A DNA stretch of 64,000 bases from an uncultured Bacteroidales bacterium (GTDB taxonomy: Bacteria > Bacteroidota > Bacteroidia > Bacteroidales > UBA12077). Under the pieces are notes generated by a model. That model was not told where the DNA came from. It saw only the letters and a program-made list of their open reading frames with translations, and ran no database searches. The DNA is taken from assembly GCA_964461045.1 (NCBI GenBank), contig CAYWSJ010000004.1, positions 1,361 to 65,360 on the forward strand. Direction: 5' to 3'. Made by a program: the position numbers and the translations under genes. Below, in pieces: positions 1,668-12,937 of the stretch (positions are counted from its first letter, which is position 1; each line of letters begins with the position of its first letter).

Positions 1668-1697
1668 AAAAAACCCGGCATACCAGCCGGGGTTTTA
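1668..1697. terminator. bidirectional hairpin terminator between convergent genes
   Basis: CCCGGC (1674-1679) pairs with GCCGGG (1686-1691). An A-run lies on the left and GTTTT on the right. It sits between the + gene ending at 1613 and the - gene ending at 1740. Confidence 0.6.
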
Positions 1698-1739: not shown

Positions 1740-2189
1740 TTAGATTTTTTTCACAAACGAGAGAATAACCACTGCAAGCCCTTCCTTTCCATCTTCGAAT
1801 TCTACAAAAATATGATAAGCTCCTGTTTTTTGGCATGTAAACTCGAAGGAGGGATAAATTTTACCTGTGGCAACCATATAATTGGAGGCTTCTAATTTAC
1901 TACTACTAAATAATTTTAAGATGGCTCTTCCGGCATAATCTTTTGAACTGCAAATAGAAAATTTATAAACAGTATTTTTTCTTAAGACCAATGATTGCTT
2001 ATCCTGCAATGGTTCTTGACCTGGAGGTGTGCTTCCTAACTTAACAGTAAAATCCTTTAGGTAAGTTGCATCTCCTGCTACTCTTGAGCAGATATTAACC
2101 AATTCTTCACCACTCTGAGCAGAGGATTGATTGATTCCTGCAAATGTTATTAAAGAGATTATAATAATAAAAAAATACGTATTCTTCAT
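1740..2189 (-). CDS. small secreted protein, unknown function
   Basis: 149-aa ORF with an N-terminal signal-like segment (FFIIIISLITFAGINQSSAQ). Starts 4 nt downstream of the preceding lipoprotein gene. Last gene of the minus-strand operon. Confidence 0.55.
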   Translation of the reverse strand: MKNTYFFIIIISLITFAGINQSSAQSGEELVNICSRVAGDATYLKDFTVKLGSTPPGQEPLQDKQSLVLRKNTVYKFSICSSKDYAGRAILKLFSSSKLEASNYMVATGKIYPSFEFTCQKTGAYHIFVEFEDGKEGLAVVILSFVKKI

Positions 2190-2193
2190 AATA

Positions 2194-3102
2194 TTATAGA
2201 CTGATTAAGTTATTTCGGATTTTGTTTGTTTCCTCAATAATTTTATATAATTGTTCATCTGTTATTTTTACGATACTTTTTTCATTTTGTTTGAAAGTAA
2301 GCTGACCATTTTCATCAATTATTTGTTCTGTTTCCCCTTGCTCAATGGTTATTTTAACTTCTTTAAATATTTTATGAATTCTTTTATAATCCTTAATCAG
2401 GTCCTGGAAATCCGGATTGTTCCTGTAGTTTTCCAGAAGAATCATCAGATTTGACATCATTACTTTTTGTTCACCAATTGCTTCTCTTAATTGTGGGTCA
2501 GGATCTGATTTATATACTTCACTTGTAAGATATAATCCTTCAAGCCATGCACCTGCAATCATAAGGGCGCTTAAATTACTCCTGCTATTTTCTCTCAAAT
2601 ACTCATCCATTTGTTTGAAATTTCTTTGAGAAATGTAAATCAAAGAATCAATATTTTCACTACTGGATGCCAGTCTTTTTAATGTACTAAAATCAAAAAA
2701 CTGGCCAATTTTTAATTTGTCGGCAATTTTTTTTATGGATTTTAGATAATCTATAGATACGGTTGTTTTGCTGTACATATTAAGATAACCGAGGTCAGCC
2801 GCGTAAATACCAAGGAGGATTGATTGCCTGAAGCTGGTACTGTAACTATCCACATTATCTGTAGATGCCAGGTATTCTTTTGAAAACGGGACATTCAGGC
2901 TTTTGATTAACGCTGCTGTTTCAATGGGTGATGAGATGTTCTCTGTAATTTTTTCCATTGCCTGATCTGAAACTTCGTAAACACCTTTGTTTGCAACAGA
3001 GTCAGGAACCTCTAAAGAATTATCTTCATTCCCTTCATTCGAGCATTTACATCCTGAAATTAAAGCGATTATGAGTACTCCTAGAATAAACTTTATCTTC
3101 AT
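2194..3102 (-). CDS. lipoprotein, unknown function (mostly helical)
   Basis: 302-aa ORF with signal peptide plus lipobox (LIIALISGC). No recognisable enzymatic motif. Confidence 0.6.
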   Translation of the reverse strand: MKIKFILGVLIIALISGCKCSNEGNEDNSLEVPDSVANKGVYEVSDQAMEKITENISSPIETAALIKSLNVPFSKEYLASTDNVDSYSTSFRQSILLGIYAADLGYLNMYSKTTVSIDYLKSIKKIADKLKIGQFFDFSTLKRLASSSENIDSLIYISQRNFKQMDEYLRENSRSNLSALMIAGAWLEGLYLTSEVYKSDPDPQLREAIGEQKVMMSNLMILLENYRNNPDFQDLIKDYKRIHKIFKEVKITIEQGETEQIIDENGQLTFKQNEKSIVKITDEQLYKIIEETNKIRNNLISL

Positions 3103-3165: not shown

Positions 3166-6100
3166 TTAGGATTTCCGAAAGATTAATTTTTTTAAATTGA
3201 CTTTCTGTGGTAAATTAAGCAATTTATATAATGCATTGTAGTATAATGCTATATAGAATATAATAGTCATTATAGCAATAATCGCTAAATTAAACCAGTA
3301 AGTGCCAAAATAATTTCCCATAAAATATTTTCTGGGCGCAAAAAAGTGAGCCCTGAAATTAAAAAATCCTTCCTCTTCGGGATCCTGATAAATCGGGTCA
3401 ATATGTTGTATTAACTTATCTTCGTATTGAATGATTTTATTTTTTTCCAGAACTTTTTTTACCTGGTCAGAAATACTCTCGTTATAGTACTGATCCTTAA
3501 TTTTTCTATAAAAAGAAGGTCTTGTTTCAAGCAAATAACTTCTGATATTATCTAATTTTCTGTTTGCTAAATGAAATTTCTTTGAATAATATTGATCTAA
3601 TCGTTCCAGGTAATCAGTAATTTCACTCAAAATCAATTTGTTTATTTTATCCACCTTGAGTTTATCCAGGTATTTGAAAGTTAGATCTGTTTTGTTCATT
3701 TCTTTTCCCAGTTCATTTCTGAGTAGCGCAAGATCAGATTTTAGCTTTTCCTTTATGTCCTCTTTATGACTAAATTTAAGATTTTTCTTAATTTTTTTGA
3801 CCTTTTTTTCTAATTCGGGGATATAATAGACCTGTTTATAATTGGCCTTGCTTTCCTTTTTTTCAAGATCGTAAAAATGTTGTTCGTATTTATTGTTTTT
3901 GAATTGGTTTACCATAAGTGCCTCATAAGACCATTTTGTGGGCATTATTTCAGCAATAAGGGGTACTTTATCCACACTGGTAATATTCCTGTTTAATTTA
4001 TCGAAGGGGAACATAGCCCCGCTGAGTATCATCATTGGGATCATTAATAACGGAATGATGATGTATATTGTAACAGCAGAGTTGAAGGTGGCTGAAATAT
4101 TTAATCCAATCATGTTAGCACATACGGCTGTTATAAATAATGCAAGCCAGTATTCGAAAAACATTCCGCGTATTTCGAGGATGCTGTTGGCAATCAGTAC
4201 AAACAGAACGGATTGTATGGCTGATATAACAGTCAAAATAAGCACTTTAGAGGTTAGGTAACTGGATTTACTTAAATTCAGAAATTGTTCTCTTTTAAGT
4301 ATTTTCCGGTCTCTGAATATTTCTTCTGCACTTACTGTTAACCCCAAAAACAGTGAAACAATAAGTGCCATAAAGATGTAAATAGGGATGTTTTCATTTA
4401 TGCGGAATATATACTCATCTGAGGTAGGGTTCGGTACATAGCGAATAATATATGATAGGATAAAGCCCAGAACAGGCGCTTCGAGTAAATTCAGGGCAAC
4501 GTATTGTTTGTTGCTTATTTTTGAGAGAAAATCCCTGATTGTATATATTTTAAATTGGGTTAACCAGGAGGGTATCTTGGTTGAAGAAGGGGGTTCTTCA
4601 TCTACTTCTTTGACATGTTCTATATTTATGTTTTCGTGTAGCCTTTCTTCCCATTTTTTAGGTGATACTTTTCTTTTGTCTGTGTATCTTCCATATTCAT
4701 CAACTACCCGGGCTTCCATAATGTTAAATATAAGTTCGGGATTTACGTTACCGCAGGTAGGGCACTCCCCCACATCGCTATTAATCTGTGCGTCAAGGCG
4801 TTTGAAATACATGACACTTTCCACGGGGTTTCCATAGTATACCATGTATCCTCCTTCATCAAGGATGATCATATTGTCAAACATTTTGTAGATCTCTGAT
4901 GAAGGTTGATGAATAACGACAAATATAAGCTTTCCTTTCAGAGTTAATTCCCGGAGGAGGTCCATTACATTTTCAGAGTCTCTTGAGGATAATCCTGAGG
5001 TTGGTTCATCTACAAAAAGAATGGCAGGCTCCCTGATTAATTCGAGGGAAATGTTCAGTCTTTTTCTTTGACCTCCGCTAATAAGTTTATTCATAGGAGA
5101 ACCGACCTTAAGGTCTTTGATTTCTCCCAGTCCGAGATTATATAAAGTTTTATCTACTAGCTCCTTGAGTTCTTCTTCTTCTTTGTCTCTAAAAACCAGT
5201 TTTGCATTATAGTATAAATTCTGAAAAACTGTAAGTTCCTCAATAAGAAGGTCATCCTGGGGAATGTATCCTATTGAACCTTTAAGATTTTCTTCTCCTT
5301 CATGGAGATTTGTGCCATTAATTCTTATTTCTCCTGTGGTTGGTTTGTTAATGCCGGACAGGATATTCAGCAGTGTTGTTTTACCAGCACCACTGGCTCC
5401 CATGATTCCAATTAATTTTCCCTGTGTTTCTGAAAAATTAATATTTCTGAGTCCTATGGCACCGTTCGGGAATTGATAGCCGATATTATCTGCTACATAG
5501 GAAATTTTCAGGGAGGTTGAGTCAGCCAGGTAATGTGCAACAACATCGCTGTAGTATATTGGTTTTCCTTTAGGGAGCTTGATTGAACCACCCTGAGCAA
5601 AGAGATAAATTCTTTTGTTGTTAAGAGGCAGGCCATTAAGGTTTATTTCTTCACTTCCCGTATAGCGTAAGAAATACAGGTCTACACTTTTTATATGCAG
5701 TATAAATATGTTGCCGTCTAGTGCAGTTGACTGGATATGCTTACAGTTCTCACAGGGGTTTTCTTTGTCGTTTATTATGAGTATGTTATGGTTGTCCAGT
5801 TTGGAAATATCATTGTTAATAACGAAGGTTTCAATACTTCTGTATTCTTCCCTGGTAACTTTAAAGACTTCGGCAACAGTGTTAATGATGGCCATTCTTT
5901 GTTCTGAGAATTTTCGGTCGGCATTGATCAACTCGAAAAGTCTTACCAGAACAATTATTTTCTGTTTTTGGGTAAGTGTTTTGTTAATTTTTTTACAAAG
6001 CCCTAGTATTCTTACGGAGTCTTTAACGGAGGTAAGTTTTCTTTTTTTCTCTTTTTCTCCGTTTTGGTTATTTTTTTTGTATCCTGCTTTTTTATCAAAA

Positions 6101-6249
6101 AGCTCTATATACTCCTGAATAGCCTCATCGTTGAGTTGTTGAGTGAGGAAATTTAAAACATAATCTCTTTCGTTGGTTTCAACACCATCATCTTGTTTTG
6201 CAATAATCGCAAACAACTGCATCAACGCCTTCAGAATCTCTTCACTCAT
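3166..6249 (-). CDS. ABCG/White-type ABC exporter (NBD-TMD fusion) with N-terminal TerB-like helical region and FHA-like beta region
   Basis: Walker A GASGAGKTT, signature LSGGQRKRL, Walker B ILFVDEPTSGLS and the ABCG hallmark VIHQPSSEIYKMFD. About 6 TM helices follow the NBD. A long charged C-terminal extension ends in one more TM. N-terminus has LFAIIAKQDDGVETNERDYV (TerB-like pattern). Confidence 0.85.
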   Translation of the reverse strand: MSEEILKALMQLFAIIAKQDDGVETNERDYVLNFLTQQLNDEAIQEYIELFDKKAGYKKNNQNGEKEKKRKLTSVKDSVRILGLCKKINKTLTQKQKIIVLVRLFELINADRKFSEQRMAIINTVAEVFKVTREEYRSIETFVINNDISKLDNHNILIINDKENPCENCKHIQSTALDGNIFILHIKSVDLYFLRYTGSEEINLNGLPLNNKRIYLFAQGGSIKLPKGKPIYYSDVVAHYLADSTSLKISYVADNIGYQFPNGAIGLRNINFSETQGKLIGIMGASGAGKTTLLNILSGINKPTTGEIRINGTNLHEGEENLKGSIGYIPQDDLLIEELTVFQNLYYNAKLVFRDKEEEELKELVDKTLYNLGLGEIKDLKVGSPMNKLISGGQRKRLNISLELIREPAILFVDEPTSGLSSRDSENVMDLLRELTLKGKLIFVVIHQPSSEIYKMFDNMIILDEGGYMVYYGNPVESVMYFKRLDAQINSDVGECPTCGNVNPELIFNIMEARVVDEYGRYTDKRKVSPKKWEERLHENINIEHVKEVDEEPPSSTKIPSWLTQFKIYTIRDFLSKISNKQYVALNLLEAPVLGFILSYIIRYVPNPTSDEYIFRINENIPIYIFMALIVSLFLGLTVSAEEIFRDRKILKREQFLNLSKSSYLTSKVLILTVISAIQSVLFVLIANSILEIRGMFFEYWLALFITAVCANMIGLNISATFNSAVTIYIIIPLLMIPMMILSGAMFPFDKLNRNITSVDKVPLIAEIMPTKWSYEALMVNQFKNNKYEQHFYDLEKKESKANYKQVYYIPELEKKVKKIKKNLKFSHKEDIKEKLKSDLALLRNELGKEMNKTDLTFKYLDKLKVDKINKLILSEITDYLERLDQYYSKKFHLANRKLDNIRSYLLETRPSFYRKIKDQYYNESISDQVKKVLEKNKIIQYEDKLIQHIDPIYQDPEEEGFFNFRAHFFAPRKYFMGNYFGTYWFNLAIIAIMTIIFYIALYYNALYKLLNLPQKVNLKKLIFRKS

Positions 6250-6271: not shown

Positions 6272-6652
6272 TTACAATACGTAACTAACCTGTTCAAAAG
6301 GGATATCTACTATATCTGCATATTCTTCTCCGGCTTCTTCCATATCTTCGTCATCTTCCGGATAATACCATTTAATAAGAACATCGTTCCCGTTTTCATA
6401 CATTTCTTCCAGTTTCATTAAAATATCAAGAAGAAGTTTTGAAGATGCTGTATTGAAATAAACTAATTTAAATGAAAATATGGTTTTTGCATTTGGATTT
6501 TCTGCATATTCTTCAAGCCAGTTCAGGATAGGTTCATAAAAAGTTGTCACATCTTCAGGTAAAGACCTTCCTGATATTTCAAAGATCTCATTATCTTTGT
6601 CAAGAATAACACTAGGCGTATCGTCTGTTCCTTTTATTTTTATTACTTCCAT
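6272..6652 (-). CDS. DUF1987 / SiaC-like partner-switch phosphoprotein
   Basis: 126 aa. N-terminal KIKGTDDTPSVILDKDNEIFEISGRSLPED, then FYEPILNWL and the YFNT68ASSK motif, with an acidic C-terminus. This is the typical DUF1987 layout. Confidence 0.75.
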   Translation of the reverse strand: MEVIKIKGTDDTPSVILDKDNEIFEISGRSLPEDVTTFYEPILNWLEEYAENPNAKTIFSFKLVYFNTASSKLLLDILMKLEEMYENGNDVLIKWYYPEDDEDMEEAGEEYADIVDIPFEQVSYVL

Positions 6653-6666
6653 AATTCAAACATTTA

Positions 6667-7242
6667 TTAATTATTTCTAGAAATTGATGATGAAAGAAGG
6701 AAAAACGAACTTGTTTCATCAATTGGTAAAAAGTGGTATTCTAATTTGTTCCCGGTTTTTCTTGCAATATCAATAAAACCAAGGCCAGCACCACCTTTAT
6801 CGGATAATCTTCCTTCTCGCATTTGTTTTTTGTAAAGTTGTTTTAATCCTTCTTTATCCAAACTGTTAATTTCCTCGAGCATGTCGGTTAGTTCTTCTAT
6901 CTTCCTGTTTTCTATCACATTCCCGGTTGTTACATGGTAATCTCTTTTTCCTTTGCTTACCATGAAGATTCCACGTCCGGCAAACAGGTAATCGTCAGAG
7001 CCAAATGTGTCGGCATGTTTGCTTATGTTTTGCAAACACTCAACCATTACATGGAAGACTTTCTTTTGCACTGTATTTGATTCTTCTTCTTTGGCCATGT
7101 TTGATTCGGTCAATGAGGTAAAAGCTTTTGTGATCTGGTGTGTAATTTCACCCTCATAGACCAGTGTAATTTCATGAGCTTTCATTGACCTATAAAAATC
7201 GTATACAAATTCAAGAAAGCCTTTCACATTATGTTTATCCAT
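6667..7242 (-). CDS. SiaB-like protein kinase (RsbW/SpoIIAB-type GHKL fold)
   Basis: 191 aa. N-box-like VECLQNISKH and G-box-like DKGGAGLGFIDIARKTG. Sits immediately upstream of the DUF1987 gene (14-nt gap). Confidence 0.7.
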   Translation of the reverse strand: MDKHNVKGFLEFVYDFYRSMKAHEITLVYEGEITHQITKAFTSLTESNMAKEEESNTVQKKVFHVMVECLQNISKHADTFGSDDYLFAGRGIFMVSKGKRDYHVTTGNVIENRKIEELTDMLEEINSLDKEGLKQLYKKQMREGRLSDKGGAGLGFIDIARKTGNKLEYHFLPIDETSSFFLLSSSISRNN

Positions 7243-7279
7243 AACATAGGTATTAATTTAGTTAAACAAAGTAAATATA

Positions 7280-9880
7280 TTAAAATTCTATTCCAATTAA
7301 TAACACGTCATCTATTTGTTTATTGTTTTTTTTCCATTTCCTGTAGTCACTTGCAAAGAAACTTGAAAATTGCTGCATCGTTAAATCCTTATTTTCCAGT
7401 ATATTTTCTCTGATTTTTTTCGGTGTATATTTCCTTTTATCGGGCCCACCAATTTGATCGGGCAAACCGTCAGTGAAGAAGAAAATTTTATCTCCTTCTT
7501 TATATTTAATGATATGGTTTACAAAATCTTTTTCAGCCTTTTTCCTGTGGGGAATCCCGCCAATGGCTTTTCGGTTTCCTTTGTACTGTGTTAATTCACC
7601 ATCCCTCAGTAGGTATAAAGGTCTGTGTGCTCCGGCGTATTGCAGTTCTTTTTTCTTTTTGTCAATCCGGCACAGTGCAATGTCCATTCCATCTCTTGCT
7701 TCGGCATCAAACCTGTCTTGTTTCAGGGTAGATCTGACACCAAAATGAAGCTTGTCAAGAACCTGGGCAGCGGTATAGTTTTTATTGTGGTCCACAATAT
7801 TGTTTAACTGGAAATACCCAATAAATGACAGCAATGCTCCGGGCACTCCATGCCCTGTACAATCGACAGCTGCAATGAAAATAATATCTTCTTTTTTAAA
7901 GAACCAGGGGAAGTCACCGCTTACGACGTCTCTGGGTTCGTAGAACATAAATGATTTTGGCAGGTATTCCTGTACAATAGTATTGCTTGGGAGTATTGAT
8001 GTTTGAATTCTTTGTGCATAGTTTATACTGTCTGTAATCTGCTTATTTTTTTTCTGGATTTCCATTTCTATTCGTTTTGCCTCTGTAATGTCGTGTCCGA
8101 CGAAAAGAATGGTTTCCAGTTCACTTTCATTGAATTCCGGGATCGCTTTAAAATTCATTATGCGTTCGCCTAATTTAGCGGTAGGAATTGTGATTTCTTT
8201 GTTGAGTGTTTCATTTTTCTTTTTAATTTCTTCAATGGAATCAACAAAGAAGTGGGCAAGTGTTTCTTCTATTTCAAGGTCTTTTATGCGTGTATTGATT
8301 AATTTTTGTGGGTCAATCCCTACATATGATTTTGATACAGGATTAGAGTAAAAGAACTGACCCCTGGTATTAAGTCGCATAATTAAGTCGGGACTGTTTT
8401 CTGAAAGGGACTGCATCTTACTCTTCATTCTTTCTTCTTTCTCTGCTCGTTTTCTTTCAGTAATATCCCTTGAATTGAGTATGATACCATTTATGGCAGG
8501 ATCTTCGAGAAGGTTTCTTCCTGTAGTCTCGAGGAAGATTTTTTTGCCGTCCTTTTTGATATAGGTATATTGTAGAGTTTGTGGCTCCTTTGGATTTTCC
8601 TTGAGTTTCTTAAACATGTCTTTCAGAGCAGCTTCCCCTTTCGCTGTAAGTCTTTCCATGTCTTTTCCACGCATCATTTCAGCCTGTGTGTATCCAAGGA
8701 TATTTTTAACGTTTGGACTTTGGTATTTGAGTTTCAGGTTTTCGTCGTATATCGAGATTACCTCGGATGCATTTTCAAGGAGTGCTTTAAGGCGTTTCTG
8801 GGCATTTTCAACCTCCTTTATCTGTGCTTCAAGTTTTTTGTTTGATTTTTCAAGCTCCTCGTGGGTAGCCCTCATTTCCTCTGCGTTCTGTCTTAGCTCC
8901 TCCTCATTTTCTTTCAGTTCCTGGGTCATTTGTTGTGATTCCTGAAGCAATTTTTCTGTCTTTTGGTTCATCTTCAGGTTGTAGATTGTTCTGGCGATAA
9001 TTTCGGCCAGCTCACGAAGGAAATTTATGGTAAGTTCGGGTATTTCTTCTTTTATATCTGCAAATTCAATAACACCCTGAAGTTTTTCGTCTGCTATAAG
9101 AGGCACTATTAAAAGGCTTTTGGGTTTTTTGTCACCCAGAATACCAGATGTAATAGTTGCGTAGTCATCAGGAATTTCTGTTCGATAGATGTAGTCCATC
9201 TCATAGGCACATTCACCGATTAGTCCTTCTCCAACTTTGAATTCCTGGTTAATATATCTTTTTCGGTTATAGGCGTACGTCGCAACGTTTACCAGTTTTT
9301 CTTCTTCTTCATTATAGATGTAGAGAGCGCCCTGTATTATATTGATGTAATCGATTAATTTTACAATCACGTCAAATGCAAGGCCATCTATATCATTATG
9401 TAATCTTAAAATTTCCGAAACAATATCTTTCCCTTCTGCAATCCAGTTTCTTTCTTTTTCTTTCTGGTTACTTTCCAGCAGGTTATTTCTCATCCTGAGG
9501 AGTGATTTCCCAAGAACGTCGTTTTCATTTTTTATTTCTAATTTGGCATCGTAATGTCCTTCGCCAATTTTTTTTGCAAAAGTTGCATTTCTGTCTATAT
9601 CAAGATCTCTCTGGTTAATGATGTCTTCGAAAACAAGTTTTTCTTTTTCTCTTTTGCGGTAGTAAATATAAATTACAACCCCAATTACAACAGGGATAGA
9701 GTCAATAACCCATAACGTAGGATTGGTTTTGTGAATTTGGGCAATGGAAGAGAATGAAAAGGCAAGGTTGCCGGAAATAATATTAATAACCCATGCTATT
9801 ATGGGTATTAAGATAGAAACAGCAACTCCTGTAAGAATATCATTTTTGGTTATTGTAATTGAATTTTTTTCTCGACTCAT
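7280..9880 (-). CDS. membrane sensor PP2C (SpoIIE/RsbU-type) phosphatase: 2 TM, HAMP-like, GAF, Q/E-rich coiled coil, 2 PAS, PP2C (SiaA-like)
   Basis: PP2C motifs SGDFPWFF, AAVDCTGHGVPGALLS and FFFTDGLPDQ. GAF ending LIVPLIADEKLQGVIEF. Two PAS-like blocks. ATG at 9880 preferred; the ORF track uses an upstream TTG at 9913, which would overlap the preceding gene by 17 nt. Confidence 0.85.
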   Translation of the reverse strand: MSREKNSITITKNDILTGVAVSILIPIIAWVINIISGNLAFSFSSIAQIHKTNPTLWVIDSIPVVIGVVIYIYYRKREKEKLVFEDIINQRDLDIDRNATFAKKIGEGHYDAKLEIKNENDVLGKSLLRMRNNLLESNQKEKERNWIAEGKDIVSEILRLHNDIDGLAFDVIVKLIDYINIIQGALYIYNEEEEKLVNVATYAYNRKRYINQEFKVGEGLIGECAYEMDYIYRTEIPDDYATITSGILGDKKPKSLLIVPLIADEKLQGVIEFADIKEEIPELTINFLRELAEIIARTIYNLKMNQKTEKLLQESQQMTQELKENEEELRQNAEEMRATHEELEKSNKKLEAQIKEVENAQKRLKALLENASEVISIYDENLKLKYQSPNVKNILGYTQAEMMRGKDMERLTAKGEAALKDMFKKLKENPKEPQTLQYTYIKKDGKKIFLETTGRNLLEDPAINGIILNSRDITERKRAEKEERMKSKMQSLSENSPDLIMRLNTRGQFFYSNPVSKSYVGIDPQKLINTRIKDLEIEETLAHFFVDSIEEIKKKNETLNKEITIPTAKLGERIMNFKAIPEFNESELETILFVGHDITEAKRIEMEIQKKNKQITDSINYAQRIQTSILPSNTIVQEYLPKSFMFYEPRDVVSGDFPWFFKKEDIIFIAAVDCTGHGVPGALLSFIGYFQLNNIVDHNKNYTAAQVLDKLHFGVRSTLKQDRFDAEARDGMDIALCRIDKKKKELQYAGAHRPLYLLRDGELTQYKGNRKAIGGIPHRKKAEKDFVNHIIKYKEGDKIFFFTDGLPDQIGGPDKRKYTPKKIRENILENKDLTMQQFSSFFASDYRKWKKNNKQIDDVLLIGIEF

Positions 9881-9896
9881 ATCAATAAGCTGTATA

Positions 9897-10676
9897 TTAT
9901 ATTTTATTAGCAAGTTGCTCGCCTAATTTTTCTTTCAAAGATGCAAGCAGTTTTTCAGTTTTTTTCCCATACACTTTAAATGAAGCCAGTTCTATTAGTC
10001 CTATTGTTTTTTCCTGGTTAATTACAGGGATGTAAAGTATGCTTTTAGGTGAACTGCTTCCCAGTCCGGAAAGTATTGTAATGTAATTTTCCGGTATTTT
10101 AGTCAGATTTAATATTTTCTGATTTTGAGCTGTCTGGCCTGAGAGTGTTGACCCAAGATCAAAATCTTTTGGTTCTTCTTCTCCAAAATATGCAAATTTT
10201 CCAGCTATTGTAAATGTATCAGAATCTTTTTTTCTTGTATAATACAGGCCCTGGACAATATCAAATTCTTTAGCAAGATTACTGAGTACCTGTTCTGTAT
10301 GTTTTTGTAAAGAAGCTTTGCCTTTTGTGTCTTTAGGAATGATTTTTTTATGCAGAGATTCTATTTCTTTTTGGTCTATTTCCTGTTCTTCCTCTTCATC
10401 TTCTTCTTTTTTGGCTGTATCTCCCTCAATATCGGTAAGGTATGTTTTTTTGATATATTCTTCTTTACTTATTTTTTCTTTGGTGAGTGTAATAATTTGA
10501 ATATAGAGCCCCAATCCGGTTAAGGTTGCTATTCCAAGCAGGAAATAAATAATGGTAGCCTGGAAATCCTGATCTAATGAAATATTTCTGATTCTGGCCA
10601 GTACGAGAACAAGGATAATTAAGAATATGAAGAAAAAAGCAGTGCTTAATATTTTATGTGATTTTTTATAACTCAT
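9897..10676 (-). CDS. membrane-anchored GAF-domain protein with acidic linker
   Basis: 259 aa with two N-terminal TM segments. Linker KKEEDEEEEQEIDQKEIE. C-terminal GAF-like block ending YIPVINQEKTIGLIELASF. Confidence 0.6.
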   Translation of the reverse strand: MSYKKSHKILSTAFFFIFLIILVLVLARIRNISLDQDFQATIIYFLLGIATLTGLGLYIQIITLTKEKISKEEYIKKTYLTDIEGDTAKKEEDEEEEQEIDQKEIESLHKKIIPKDTKGKASLQKHTEQVLSNLAKEFDIVQGLYYTRKKDSDTFTIAGKFAYFGEEEPKDFDLGSTLSGQTAQNQKILNLTKIPENYITILSGLGSSSPKSILYIPVINQEKTIGLIELASFKVYGKKTEKLLASLKEKLGEQLANKI

Positions 10677-10683
10677 TAAATTG

Positions 10684-11241
10684 TTATTTTAAGTTTTGTA
10701 AATAATCAATTATCTGATCTGTTGTATAAACATAATCTACATCCGTTACTCTTAAAGATGCTTCTGTCATTGTTGCCACTTCACATTCTTTAGGATCTTG
10801 CACAATAGCTGTTCCTCCCAGTTCTTTCACTTTTTTAAGTCCTTGTGCGCCGTCTCTGTTAGCTCCTGAAAGGATTATTCCAAGCAGGTTTTTATTGTAT
10901 GTTTGAGCTGCTGTTTCAAAAGAAAGATCAATTGATGGCCTGGAATGATTTACAGGTTCTTCAGTGGACAAAGCAATTTTTTTGTTTAATTCTATATACA
11001 TATGATAGTTTGACGGGGCCAGATATGCATTCCCTGGTTTGATGGAATCTTTATCATGGGGTTCAATTACCGGGATGTTTGATTTAATAGACAGTGCCTC
11101 CACAAACCCTGACCTTACATGCTTAAGGCGATGCAGGTTGAGCAAAATGGGCAATGGGTAACCTTTTGGCAATGATTGTAAAATTTTTGTAATCACCCTG
11201 AAGCTACCGGCAGAACCTCCTATGATAACAGCTTTAAACAT
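10684..11241 (-). CDS. cheB: protein-glutamate methylesterase, catalytic domain only (no receiver domain)
   Basis: 185 aa. VIIGGSAGSFRV (Ser motif), LHRLKH region and GANRDGAQGLKKVKELGGTAIVQDP (Asp motif), as in CheB_methylest. The start codon directly abuts the stop of the upstream CheR-like gene. Confidence 0.8.
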   Translation of the reverse strand: MFKAVIIGGSAGSFRVITKILQSLPKGYPLPILLNLHRLKHVRSGFVEALSIKSNIPVIEPHDKDSIKPGNAYLAPSNYHMYIELNKKIALSTEEPVNHSRPSIDLSFETAAQTYNKNLLGIILSGANRDGAQGLKKVKELGGTAIVQDPKECEVATMTEASLRVTDVDYVYTTDQIIDYLQNLK

Positions 11242-12072
11242 TTAAGCTAATTTTTTCTTATAGATTTTTTCGTTTTCGTTTACTAATATATAATCTTTCT
11301 CTGAATTCCAATAATCAATTTTTTCATTCATTCCAATTATAAGGTGCCCGCCAGGAACCAAACAGTTGTATAGTGATTTAAGAAGTCTTTCTTCAAGGAT
11401 CTGGTTAAAATACAACAAATGGTTTCTGTAAAAAATTAGTTTTATCCCTTTAGGATATTGCTCAAAGATAGTATTTTGTTTGATAAATTTAATATTTTTA
11501 AGTAATGAAATATCGATATAGGCACTTTCGTCTTTTATTGTGTAATAATCACTTAGTGGTTTTTCGTCAATTATCCTTTTGAAGTTGGATTCATTCACAT
11601 CAATTTTGGTATAGTCAAAGTATCCTTCCTGAATCTTGTTAAGGTGGATCTGACTAATACTGCTTACTAAAAACTGAACCTTATCAAGTACGCCTAAATA
11701 ATCAAGAAGAATGGCTACTGAATACAATTCTTCTCCTGAGCTTACCTCGGGGAACCAAATTTTGTACTGGGAGCTTTTTTGTAAAATTTGAGGAAAAAAG
11801 TCGTCTTTTAAGTATCTCCATAAGGATGGATCCCGGAACATTTCAGTTATTTCAATGCATAATTCTTTCAGGAATATTTCAAAGAAATCTTTATCATTTT
11901 CAATCCTTCTGATAAAGTTATCTGCATTTTTAAGGTTATATTTATCAATAATCAATTCTACTCTTCTTTTAAAGAAAGTGAGGGCATAATTTTTAAAATT
12001 AAAGTCATACTTTTCTTTAATCGCCTTTATAATATTTCTAGTATCTACAATTCCTAATTCGTATCTTGCCAT
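11242..12072 (-). CDS. CheR-like methyltransferase paralogue with diverged SAM-binding loop
   Basis: 276 aa with CheR N-terminal helical region plus MTase fold (EMFRDPSLW, LIFYRNHLLYF). The canonical AGCSTGEE loop reads PEVSSGEE. Confidence 0.7.
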   Translation of the reverse strand: MARYELGIVDTRNIIKAIKEKYDFNFKNYALTFFKRRVELIIDKYNLKNADNFIRRIENDKDFFEIFLKELCIEITEMFRDPSLWRYLKDDFFPQILQKSSQYKIWFPEVSSGEELYSVAILLDYLGVLDKVQFLVSSISQIHLNKIQEGYFDYTKIDVNESNFKRIIDEKPLSDYYTIKDESAYIDISLLKNIKFIKQNTIFEQYPKGIKLIFYRNHLLYFNQILEERLLKSLYNCLVPGGHLIIGMNEKIDYWNSEKDYILVNENEKIYKKKLA

Positions 12073-12094: not shown

Positions 12095-12937
12095 TTAATA
12101 TTTTTTTCTGTAAAAATTTCCTCTTTTATCAAATTTATTGGCTATTTCTCCCAGCATACTTTCGTGCATGCCAAAAAGCAAATAGCCATTGGTATAGAGG
12201 TGTTCATAAAATCTTTGAAAAACCTGGCTTTGCAATTCATATTTAAAATAAATAATTACATTTCTGCAAATTATCAAATCAAATTTTGCAAAATATAGAT
12301 CTTCTCCCTTAACCAGGTCATGTTTTCTGAAGATTGGTTTTTCCCTTAGGAAATCATTCATTTCCAGGGAGTCTGATATTTTGTTTATTTTAAAATACTT
12401 TGAGTATGGAACATCATTGTATTCTTCGTAATTAAAAGGATTTTCCTTTACTACTTTATCAAAATTATCAAGGTATCCAATATTAAACCGGTATTTAAAA
12501 ACACCCTTTTTGGCTGCTTCCAGAGCATCTATATTAATATCAGTTGCAAATATTTTAGCCTTATCAAACAAGTCAAGTTCATTTAGCAGGATCATCATTG
12601 AATAAACCTCTTGTCCGGTAGAGCAACCAGCGTGCCAAATATTTATGTTTTTGTTATTTTTGAATTTGGGAAGAATTCGGAAACGTAGGTCTTGCCATAC
12701 TTGTGGGTCTCTGAAAAGTTCGGTTGTGTTTACAGTAATGTCTTTTACTACTTTTTCAAGGAAAGCCCGGTCATTCTTTAATTTGTTAATAATGGTGGAA
12801 ATATCCATTTTGTTGTCATCCAAGACTTTTTGAATTCGTCTTTTAAGGGATTTTTCAGAATACTCCGTGAAGTTGTACTCCGAATGATTTTTTATAGTTG
12901 TAACAAAATAAAGGACTTCCTTATCAGTTAGACCCAT
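12095..12937 (-). CDS. cheR: protein-glutamate O-methyltransferase
   Basis: 280 aa. ELFRDPQVW, IWHAGCSTGQEVYSM and DLIICRNVIIYF are canonical CheR motifs. Confidence 0.85.
   Translation of the reverse strand: MGLTDKEVLYFVTTIKNHSEYNFTEYSEKSLKRRIQKVLDDNKMDISTIINKLKNDRAFLEKVVKDITVNTTELFRDPQVWQDLRFRILPKFKNNKNINIWHAGCSTGQEVYSMMILLNELDLFDKAKIFATDINIDALEAAKKGVFKYRFNIGYLDNFDKVVKENPFNYEEYNDVPYSKYFKINKISDSLEMNDFLREKPIFRKHDLVKGEDLYFAKFDLIICRNVIIYFKYELQSQVFQRFYEHLYTNGYLLFGMHESMLGEIANKFDKRGNFYRKKY

Follow-up and report, generated by a model that had tools for sequence, protein, structure and literature searches.

The only role known to us for SiaABC is the regulation of cyclic di-GMP (c-di-GMP) and biofilm formation in Pseudomonas. 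In P. aeruginosa, SiaC, a protein with a STAS-related fold, is phosphorylated by SiaB at T68, a residue at the N-terminal end of helix alpha2 that inserts between the stalk helices of SiaD, where S82 and Q86 (and S50 and Q54) are the residues that bind it (PMC8457831). The literature that we searched on DUF1987, the family of SiaC, holds only the suggestion that such proteins may regulate adjacent proteins. Chemotaxis-type methylation also serves an alternative output in the Wsp system, in which WspC and WspF act on the receptor WspA. Regulation of ATP-binding cassette (ABC) transporters by small or phosphorylated modules is documented in two further systems: the STAS protein MlaB regulates MlaF, the ABC ATPase of MlaFEDB (PMC7367683), and Rv1747, an ABC exporter of M. 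tuberculosis that bears an FHA domain, is regulated by threonine phosphorylation via the Ser/Thr kinase PknF (PMC3138270). Here we describe a cluster of ten genes in a stretch of 64,000 nucleotides (the window, our contig C4; GCA_964461045.1, CAYWSJ010000004.1, positions 1,361 to 65,360) from an uncultured Bacteroidales bacterium, the 3.7-Mb genome of which has a GC content of about 34% and relatives that include the Tenuifilaceae and Perlabentimonas. The genes are tightly spaced and co-oriented on the minus strand, as are all the features of the window described below, and span positions 12937-1740 in the order CheR-1, CheR-2, CheB, TM-GAF (a transmembrane GAF protein), SiaA-like, SiaB, SiaC, ABCG exporter, p302 and p149. 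We propose, with a probability of roughly 0.55 for the full mechanism, that the SiaA/SiaB/SiaC-type switch in the middle of the cluster would gate the adjacent ABCG-type exporter, which opens with TerB-like and FHA-like domains; the proposal rests on the comparison of sequences and of gene order.

For each protein of the triad, the top hit among solved structures, or the sole one, is a Pseudomonas Sia protein. A sequence-only reading of this DNA had seen a PP2C phosphatase, a GHKL kinase and a DUF1987 protein in that order, which gene calls and domain matches confirm. The SiaA-like sensor phosphatase (877 residues; 7280..9913, from a TTG codon) matches Pfam GAF_2, PAS, PAS_9 and SpoIIE. Its gene had been taken to end at 9880, the first ATG; the longer frame begins with the TTG at 9913, and the ATG is likely to be the true start. 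The PP2C domain has SiaA (6k4e; E 5.6e-32) as its only sequence match in the PDB, with the four acidic metal motifs GDF, DCxGHG, TDG and DD aligned. The SiaB-family GHKL-type protein kinase (191 residues; 6667..7242) matches DUF6272 (E 1e-45) and the NCBIfam model SiaB_fam_kinase (NF038262; 179 bits, cut-off 85), and aligns with SiaB (6kko_A; E 4e-14) over the boxes VECLQNISKH and GGAGLGFIDIARK (ATP-binding); the N-box and the G-box are invariant in 78 orthologues. The gene for the SiaC-family phosphoprotein (126 residues; 6272..6652), 14 nt further on, yields a match to PF09345 with E 3.8e-43 and 146 bits against a cut-off of 24.5. Its product aligns with SiaC (6kko_C; E 3e-15) without a gap across residues 4-120, so that YFNTAS lies over YLNTSS and Thr68 (codon 6449-6451) is the positional equivalent of T68 in SiaC. 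All 81 orthologues keep Thr68 together with the surrounding segment FKLvYFNTASSKL, and the column of this residue holds T or S in all 20 SiaC paralogues of the source genome. The equivalence of Thr68 to the SiaC phosphosite, as first suggested, is upheld by this alignment; the placement of the residue in a YFNTASSK strand is not, T68 lying at the N-terminus of helix alpha2 in P. aeruginosa (PMC8457831). We regard it as highly probable that Thr68 is a functional switch. All the same, none of the NCBIfam equivalog models reached its cut-off (SiaC 88.9 bits of 150, SiaB 89.7 of 225, SiaA 161 of 700); by that yardstick, therefore, the triad proteins are homologues, not functional equivalents.

The SiaC family is expanded in the source genome, where the 20 paralogues include tandem arrays of four and of two (outside the window, at C45:4040-6009, C62:62-930, C44:9061-9903 and C6:20476-21351). 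The same genome encodes five SiaB kinases, each adjoining a SiaC, and 25 SpoIIE-type PP2C proteins; in the other Bacteroidota sampled, SiaC genes number one to five per genome.

It is close to certain that the output of the switch is not a diguanylate cyclase. No GGDEF protein follows siaC, as the sequence-only reading had noted: the downstream neighbour, after 22 nt, is a protein of 1027 residues with ABC and ABC-2 domains. Set against the 20 SiaC-family genes of the source genome is a single GGDEF protein, encoded on another contig; it has 190 residues and lacks a SiaD-like stalk, because only 35 residues precede its domain. Neither a hidden Markov model (HMM) derived from six stalks found in other Bacteroidota nor a regular expression detected a SiaD-type docking stalk in the source genome, and the idea of a stalk hidden in the exporter or in another of its proteins was rejected on these empty searches. 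Of the 41 genomes examined from the same family, 20 are devoid of GGDEF domains and each of the others encodes one short protein of this type; 15 of 16 GGDEF-less relatives tested keep the SiaC orthologue, at 82-95% identity, several of these genomes being 99-100% complete. SiaC without SiaD is the rule in this lineage. The lone GGDEF protein does offer a conceivable c-di-GMP route, in which the switch would activate it in trans; given that it has no stalk, that the genome holds no stalk motif and that GGDEF-less relatives keep SiaC, we rejected this route as exceedingly improbable. On the same evidence, the view that the switch has been rewired away from SiaD stands.

The sequence-only reading had further supposed a different output, and comparative genomics backs the adjacent ABC exporter in that role, through gene order, a second locus, adjacency in a wider sample and congruent trees. 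A scan with one genome per species returned 280 relatives of the 126-residue protein, of which the best 80 loci, 81-98% identical, provide the conservation figures given here. As far as the contigs extend, the order CheR(-CheR)-CheB-GAF-SiaA-SiaB-SiaC-ABC-p302-p149 on one strand is found in 80 of 80 loci, with median intergenic gaps of 2-60 nt within the cluster and 22-52 nt between SiaC and the ABC gene. Conservation peaks at SiaB (76-99% identity) and SiaC (80-98%) and falls to about 30-45% in the accessory proteins. The same cluster, with one CheR, occurs in a genome of a different family (G111), and the whole of it in the cultured Perlabentimonas gracilis; in Tenuifilum thalassicum, also cultured, the exporter orthologue was found, and the cluster is known here from the exporter alone. 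A 7-kb contig binned as Kosmotogales (L031, JASGMR010000110.1) bears the Bacteroidales cluster too, with proteins 73-89% identical, and is most likely mis-binned rather than the product of a transfer.

At a second locus of the source genome, on contig C1, SiaB-SiaC is convergent with a paralogue of the exporter (49% identical) that is again accompanied by its lipoprotein, an arrangement that recurs in three genomes of another family; the other neighbours are unrelated. These neighbours were considered as parts of the system and dismissed, since by eye they look like housekeeping genes (a methyltransferase-like protein, a His-rich membrane protein) and differ between genomes. Moreover, in two genomes with a single SiaC gene (G107 and G111), that gene adjoins the exporter. 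Among 401 evenly drawn Bacteroidia genomes, searched with the N-terminal module of the exporter and with close SiaC relatives, the module was found in 208 and SiaC in 210; both were present in 190 genomes, one alone in 18 and 20, respectively, and neither in 173. We also inspected 37 exporter loci of Bacteroidia, taken at even steps of the hit list with flanks of 2.5-3 kb. SiaC lies within 3 kb at 14 of the 37, usually together with SiaB, in co-directional orientation at six and convergent at eight (a count uncorrected for ancestry); given one to five SiaC genes per genome of 3-5 Mb, adjacency by chance would be expected at well below 1%. All the SiaBC-linked exporters belong to one clade (support 100/99), its two subclades corresponding to the co-directional and the convergent arrangement, and the SiaC tree shows the same two clades. 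The strict conservation of the 259-residue TM-GAF protein beside the phosphatase might suggest a module closed upon itself, a self-contained oscillator or phospho-sink in which SiaC feeds back on the TM-GAF protein or on the phosphatase; at the convergent loci, however, SiaB-SiaC and the exporter occur with neither a GAF protein nor a phosphatase nearby, and we hold such feedback to be improbable. At some exporter-linked loci SiaB genes stand in tandem, two or three together, and an extra SiaC domain lies within a protein of about 365 residues beside the normal SiaC; loci with such oddities are L109:6225-7915, L114:5872-8508 and L127:342-2971.

What SiaC does in other Bacteroidota helps to define what is different here. 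Outside this lineage, six genomes (five of other classes, and G199 of the same class) have after siaC a gene whose product opens with a helical [IV][SG]DxxQ stalk, the spacing of which matches S82/Q86 and S50/Q54 of SiaD. The stalk is fused to GGDEF in two genomes, to HisKA-HATPase in two, to a transmembrane segment in one and to nothing in one; the stalk-GGDEF form is canonical SiaD, and one such protein matches PDB 7e6g from the stalk onward. Stalk genes of the last three kinds lie at L102:9091-10155 and L103:8908-9897 (genomes G130 and G045), L106:9105-9626 and L104:8447-8731. The docking stalk thus looks portable, and some histidine kinases may be gated by SiaC. We compared 16 exporter-linked and six stalk-linked SiaC sequences with that of P. 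aeruginosa. Position 29, D in P. aeruginosa, is R in 15 of the 16 exporter-linked proteins (K in one) and Q or E in four of the six stalk-linked ones (S and R in one each); position 31, Y in P. aeruginosa, is L or I in all 16 and Y in five of six; and position 107, L in P. aeruginosa, is A in 15 of 16 and T or S in four of six, with M and A once each. Among these three positions, the stalk-linked proteins match P. aeruginosa SiaC only at 31. Positions 65, 67 and 68 are Y, N and T in P. aeruginosa and throughout the exporter-linked set, and in the stalk-linked set Y and N are constant and T is found in five of six (S in one). Thus, the core of the phospho-switch is kept while the target face has changed, because residues 65, 67 and 68 are retained and the SiaD-contacting residues 29, 31 and 107 differ.

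The exporter (1027 residues; 3166..6249) is an ABCG-type half-transporter with Pfam matches to TerB, ABC_tran and ABC2_membrane. It is of the ABCG/White type, in that the nucleotide-binding domain (NBD) precedes the ABC-2 domain and VIHQPSS is present; TIGR00955 gives 272 bits, below the subfamily cut-off. A TerB-like helical domain (residues 1-151, nt 5797-6249) is followed by an FHA-like beta domain (residues about 152-235, nt 5545-5796), the NBD (267-470, with ABC_tran at 267-418), ABC2_membrane (564-783), a helical insert of about 200 residues and a last transmembrane helix. The AlphaFold2 model of residues 1-270 has a mean confidence (pLDDT) of 82.7, exceeding 90 in the beta domain, and its top Foldseek matches are the FHA domains of MEK1, CEP170, Rad53 (FHA1), EssC and DgcB, together with the TerB-like PG1108; the FHA matches reach a probability of about 1.0 with E values of only 4.5e-3 and weaker. 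Pfam FHA did not match the beta domain even at E 10. A canonical FHA function was considered and set aside on this empty search and on the apparently acidic residues at the phosphate-binding positions; we do not claim a reading of phosphothreonine, and the domain is unlikely to be a classical phosphothreonine reader. Residues 790-1027, approximately (window 3166-3900), hold the Lys/Glu-rich helical insert between the ABC-2 domain and the last transmembrane helix; by analogy with ABCG topology it would be extracytoplasmic and could meet the co-encoded lipoprotein.

Positions at which all linked exporters agree but the unlinked ones depart from them comprise Q11, I16, F34 and Q117 in the TerB-like domain, N205, and an NBD patch in the helix after the D-loop and the next strand (R423, N427, D430, E434, F443 and V445); all are weak candidates for docking sites. 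The clustering of specific positions in the NBD fits an alternative in which the exporter is controlled all the same, with SiaC docking on the NBD, as MlaB does on MlaF, instead of on the TerB/FHA-like module. The STAS-related fold of SiaC (PMC8457831) and the solved MlaB-MlaF precedent (PMC7367683) speak for such docking, whereas G171, a genome without SiaBC (see below), retains the NBD residues and has three of the four TerB positions altered (Q11R, I16V and Q117L), which points to TerB, albeit in a single genome and hence a small sample. We judge docking on the NBD alone to be distinctly unlikely.

On the input side, the phosphatase combines a transmembrane segment, GAF, an E/Q-rich coiled coil, PAS, PAS and PP2C domains (Pfam), and the TM-GAF protein (259 residues; 9897..10676; GAF_2, E 1e-6), with two transmembrane helices, an acidic linker and GAF, mirrors its N-terminal half; it keeps this position in all loci, at 29-76% identity. 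Upstream lie CheR-1, a protein-glutamate methyltransferase and the first gene of the cluster (12095..12937; CheR, E 1.9e-39), its paralogue CheR-2 (11242..12072; CheR, E 7e-23) and a CheB methylesterase reduced to the catalytic domain (10684..11241; CheB_methylest, E 4.8e-48, residues 5-180 of 185), which has no receiver domain, its NCBIfam match covering only positions 168-349 of full-length CheB. CheR-1, present in 64 of 80 related loci, has the canonical S-adenosylmethionine (SAM) loop WHAGCSTGQEVYS, sharing W[HS]AGCS[ST]G[QE]EVY[ST] with the CheR of the chemotaxis cluster (contig C11), while the loop of CheR-2 is the non-canonical WFPEVSSGEELYS; the remaining lineages have a single CheR. 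The ten genes include none for a methyl-accepting chemotaxis protein (MCP) signaling domain, CheA or CheW by Pfam, and the four MCPs of the source genome, like its full-length CheB and CheR, are encoded on other contigs. A candidate methyl-acceptor for these enzymes is the heptad E/Q-rich helix EKLLQESQQMTQELKENEEELRQNAEEMRATHEELEKSNKKLEAQI of the phosphatase (8819..8956). Its repeats, TQELKEN-EEELRQN-AEEMRAT-HEELEKS, sit between GAF and the first PAS domain and are near-invariant in about 70 orthologues, with E/Q alternation at two positions, NEE[E/Q]L and T[H/Q]EEL. A CheB-CheR fusion protein of the source genome has similar repeats, NEELQS[ST], and the EExxAT segment of the helix fits the consensus for receptor methylation in its C-terminal half. 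The helix was not found in the other 24 PP2C paralogues of the source genome. That it is peculiar to the CheR/CheB-linked phosphatase was nonetheless discarded, for it is unique among the PP2C paralogues yet common to nine Cache-HAMP-GAF-PAS proteins. Our literature search found no paper that joins CheR/CheB with a PP2C partner switch.

Taken together, the pathway could operate as follows. SiaB would phosphorylate SiaC at Thr68, and stimulation of its GAF/PAS domains would lead the membrane sensor phosphatase to strip this phosphate. SiaC in one of its phospho-states, presumably the unphosphorylated one as in Pseudomonas, would then dock on the cytoplasmic N-terminal module or the NBD of the exporter and switch transport on or off. 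The exporter may act with the lipoprotein and the small secreted protein on a substrate of the envelope. The receiver-less CheB and the CheR pair would probably demethylate and methylate the E/Q helix of the phosphatase, giving an adaptive set-point. Extended to all ten genes, this would amount to a hitherto undescribed kind of adaptive sensory pathway with a CheR/CheB memory that dispenses with MCP, CheA and CheW, a methylated PP2C phosphatase, a SiaB/SiaC switch at Thr68 and an exporter with TerB/FHA-like docking. SiaC would then be a portable plug with at least two target modes in Bacteroidota, one through the [IV][SG]DxxQ stalk of GGDEF, histidine-kinase and membrane outputs, the other without a stalk, on ABC exporters. 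We offer this extended reading, both target modes included, as tentative and, on balance, doubtful.

Several observations count against gating of the exporter by SiaC as we propose it. The odds ratio of the co-occurrence, 91, is uncorrected for phylogeny. At 23 of the 37 sampled loci the exporter has no SiaBC beside it. G171 retains the exporter and its N-terminal module in the absence of any SiaB or SiaC, and therefore the module is not exclusively a receptor for SiaC; the case is one of loss of SiaB and SiaC within the linked exporter clade. In a register with Rad53 FHA1 drawn by eye, D161, D178 and E200 of the beta domain take the places of the Arg, Ser and Asn that bind phosphothreonine, which would leave the domain with no direct means of reading the phosphate; an acidic pocket would, we infer, fit the release of SiaC upon phosphorylation. 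Lastly, the SAM loop of single-CheR lineages is often non-canonical (the divergent WVAAFDSGEE), though canonical in G111, and the E/Q-rich helix also occurs in nine GAF-PAS sensor proteins that do not adjoin CheR/CheB. The helix in these other sensors and the divergent SAM loops make methylation of the phosphatase the weakest link, and we put it forward as a hypothesis that falls somewhat short of even odds.

The many exporter loci without SiaBC agree with a reading in which the target of SiaC is encoded elsewhere in the genome (a kinase, for example, a transcription factor or one of the numerous PP2C/GAF sensors), the exporter being merely co-expressed, as a response or as a source of the signal that the phosphatase senses. 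With 20 SiaC proteins, only five SiaB kinases and 25 PP2C proteins in the source genome, cross-talk in trans is plausible, and elsewhere the outputs of SiaC are varied (GGDEF, histidine kinase, transmembrane protein). Conversely, the known and the newly seen targets are encoded by the gene directly after siaC, the convergent loci have only SiaB-SiaC and the exporter unit in common, the single SiaC genes of G107 and G111 lie by the exporter, and the SiaC and exporter trees are congruent. We consider an unlinked target unlikely and retain control of the adjacent exporter as the preferred reading.

Two further genes complete the cluster. p302 (302 residues; 2194..3102) is a predicted lipoprotein with a signal peptide and Cys18, and adjoins the exporter in every fetched locus, SiaBC-linked or unlinked. 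Its AlphaFold2 model (pLDDT 84.8) combines a helical bundle with a four-stranded sheet, for which Foldseek returned no match in the PDB (best E 0.22, probability 0.21). p149 (149 residues; 1740..2189), a secreted protein and the final gene, is kept in 72 loci at 43-68% identity; neither p302 nor p149 has a match in Pfam or NCBIfam. A GC-rich hairpin, CCCGGCTGGTATGCCGGG (1674..1691), followed by TTTTTTT, is the likely terminator of the ten-gene unit, and a terminator scan found no comparable hairpin within the cluster. From the gene spacing we infer that the ten genes are probably co-transcribed.

As a separate observation, the source genome encodes a family of Cache-like/TM/HAMP/GAF proteins (domains named by eye) that end in the same E/Q-rich helix as that of the phosphatase, here QQQAEEMxxQEEEMRQNMEELxATQEE, followed at most by PAS. 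Its members are found at C6:27033-38998 (five in tandem), C21:39066-41378, C9:11432-13114 and C25:6264-7556; no enzymatic output domain was apparent in them by eye, and the C9 member adjoins a SiaC paralogue.

The core of the switch occurs in about half of the sampled Bacteroidia genomes, often where a diguanylate cyclase is absent, and is tied here to orphan CheR/CheB enzymes and a widespread family of exporters. If the proposal is true, the locus would provide a concrete case of a phospho-switch protein that gates an ABC exporter post-translationally, would give a function to the DUF1987, DUF6272 and PP2C families that have expanded in environmental Bacteroidales, and would point to a possible role of CheR/CheB outside chemoreceptor arrays. 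The cultured carriers Perlabentimonas gracilis and Tenuifilum thalassicum put the cluster within experimental reach.

With the SiaABCD system of P. aeruginosa (6k4e, 6kko, 7e6g; PMC8457831) the cluster shares three homologous switch proteins in the order phosphatase-kinase-phosphoprotein, a Y-x-N-T phospho-loop with Thr68 at the identical position, the N- and G-boxes of the kinase and the metal motifs of PP2C. It resembles SiaABC yet falls outside the SiaABCD systems, since a search for their defining SiaD/stalk feature came back empty. Unlike SiaABCD, it occurs in a genome without SiaD or a docking stalk, has replacements at positions 29, 31 and 107 of SiaC, carries a TM-GAF-coiled coil-PAS-PAS sensor in place of the sensor region of SiaA, and is flanked by CheR/CheR/CheB upstream and by an ABCG-type exporter with secreted accessory proteins downstream. 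The likeness to MlaB-MlaF is one of fold and proposed role: the gene of an ABC transporter is accompanied by that of a small STAS-related protein, which would regulate the transporter post-translationally by direct binding, although Mla is of a different ABC type, an MCE-associated importer-like complex. We know of no dedicated kinase/phosphatase pair that cycles MlaB. Rv1747 resembles the exporter described here in the succession of NBD and membrane domain, in the neighboring protein kinase gene and, as far as the predicted fold shows, in an N-terminal FHA-type module; its control by threonine phosphorylation parallels the control proposed here. In contrast to Rv1747, the cluster has a GHKL-type SiaB in the place of a Hanks kinase, phosphorylation is predicted to fall on a small protein distinct from the exporter, and the FHA-like domain, preceded by a TerB-like domain, is recognizable only by fold and seems to be without the residues that bind phosphothreonine. 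With Wsp-type systems, finally, the cluster shares CheR/CheB-family enzymes encoded together with a membrane sensor that bears a heptad Glu/Gln-rich helix and an EExxAT segment; it differs from them in having no MCP signaling domain, CheA, CheW or CheB receiver, and the presumed substrate of its methylation enzymes is a PP2C phosphatase.

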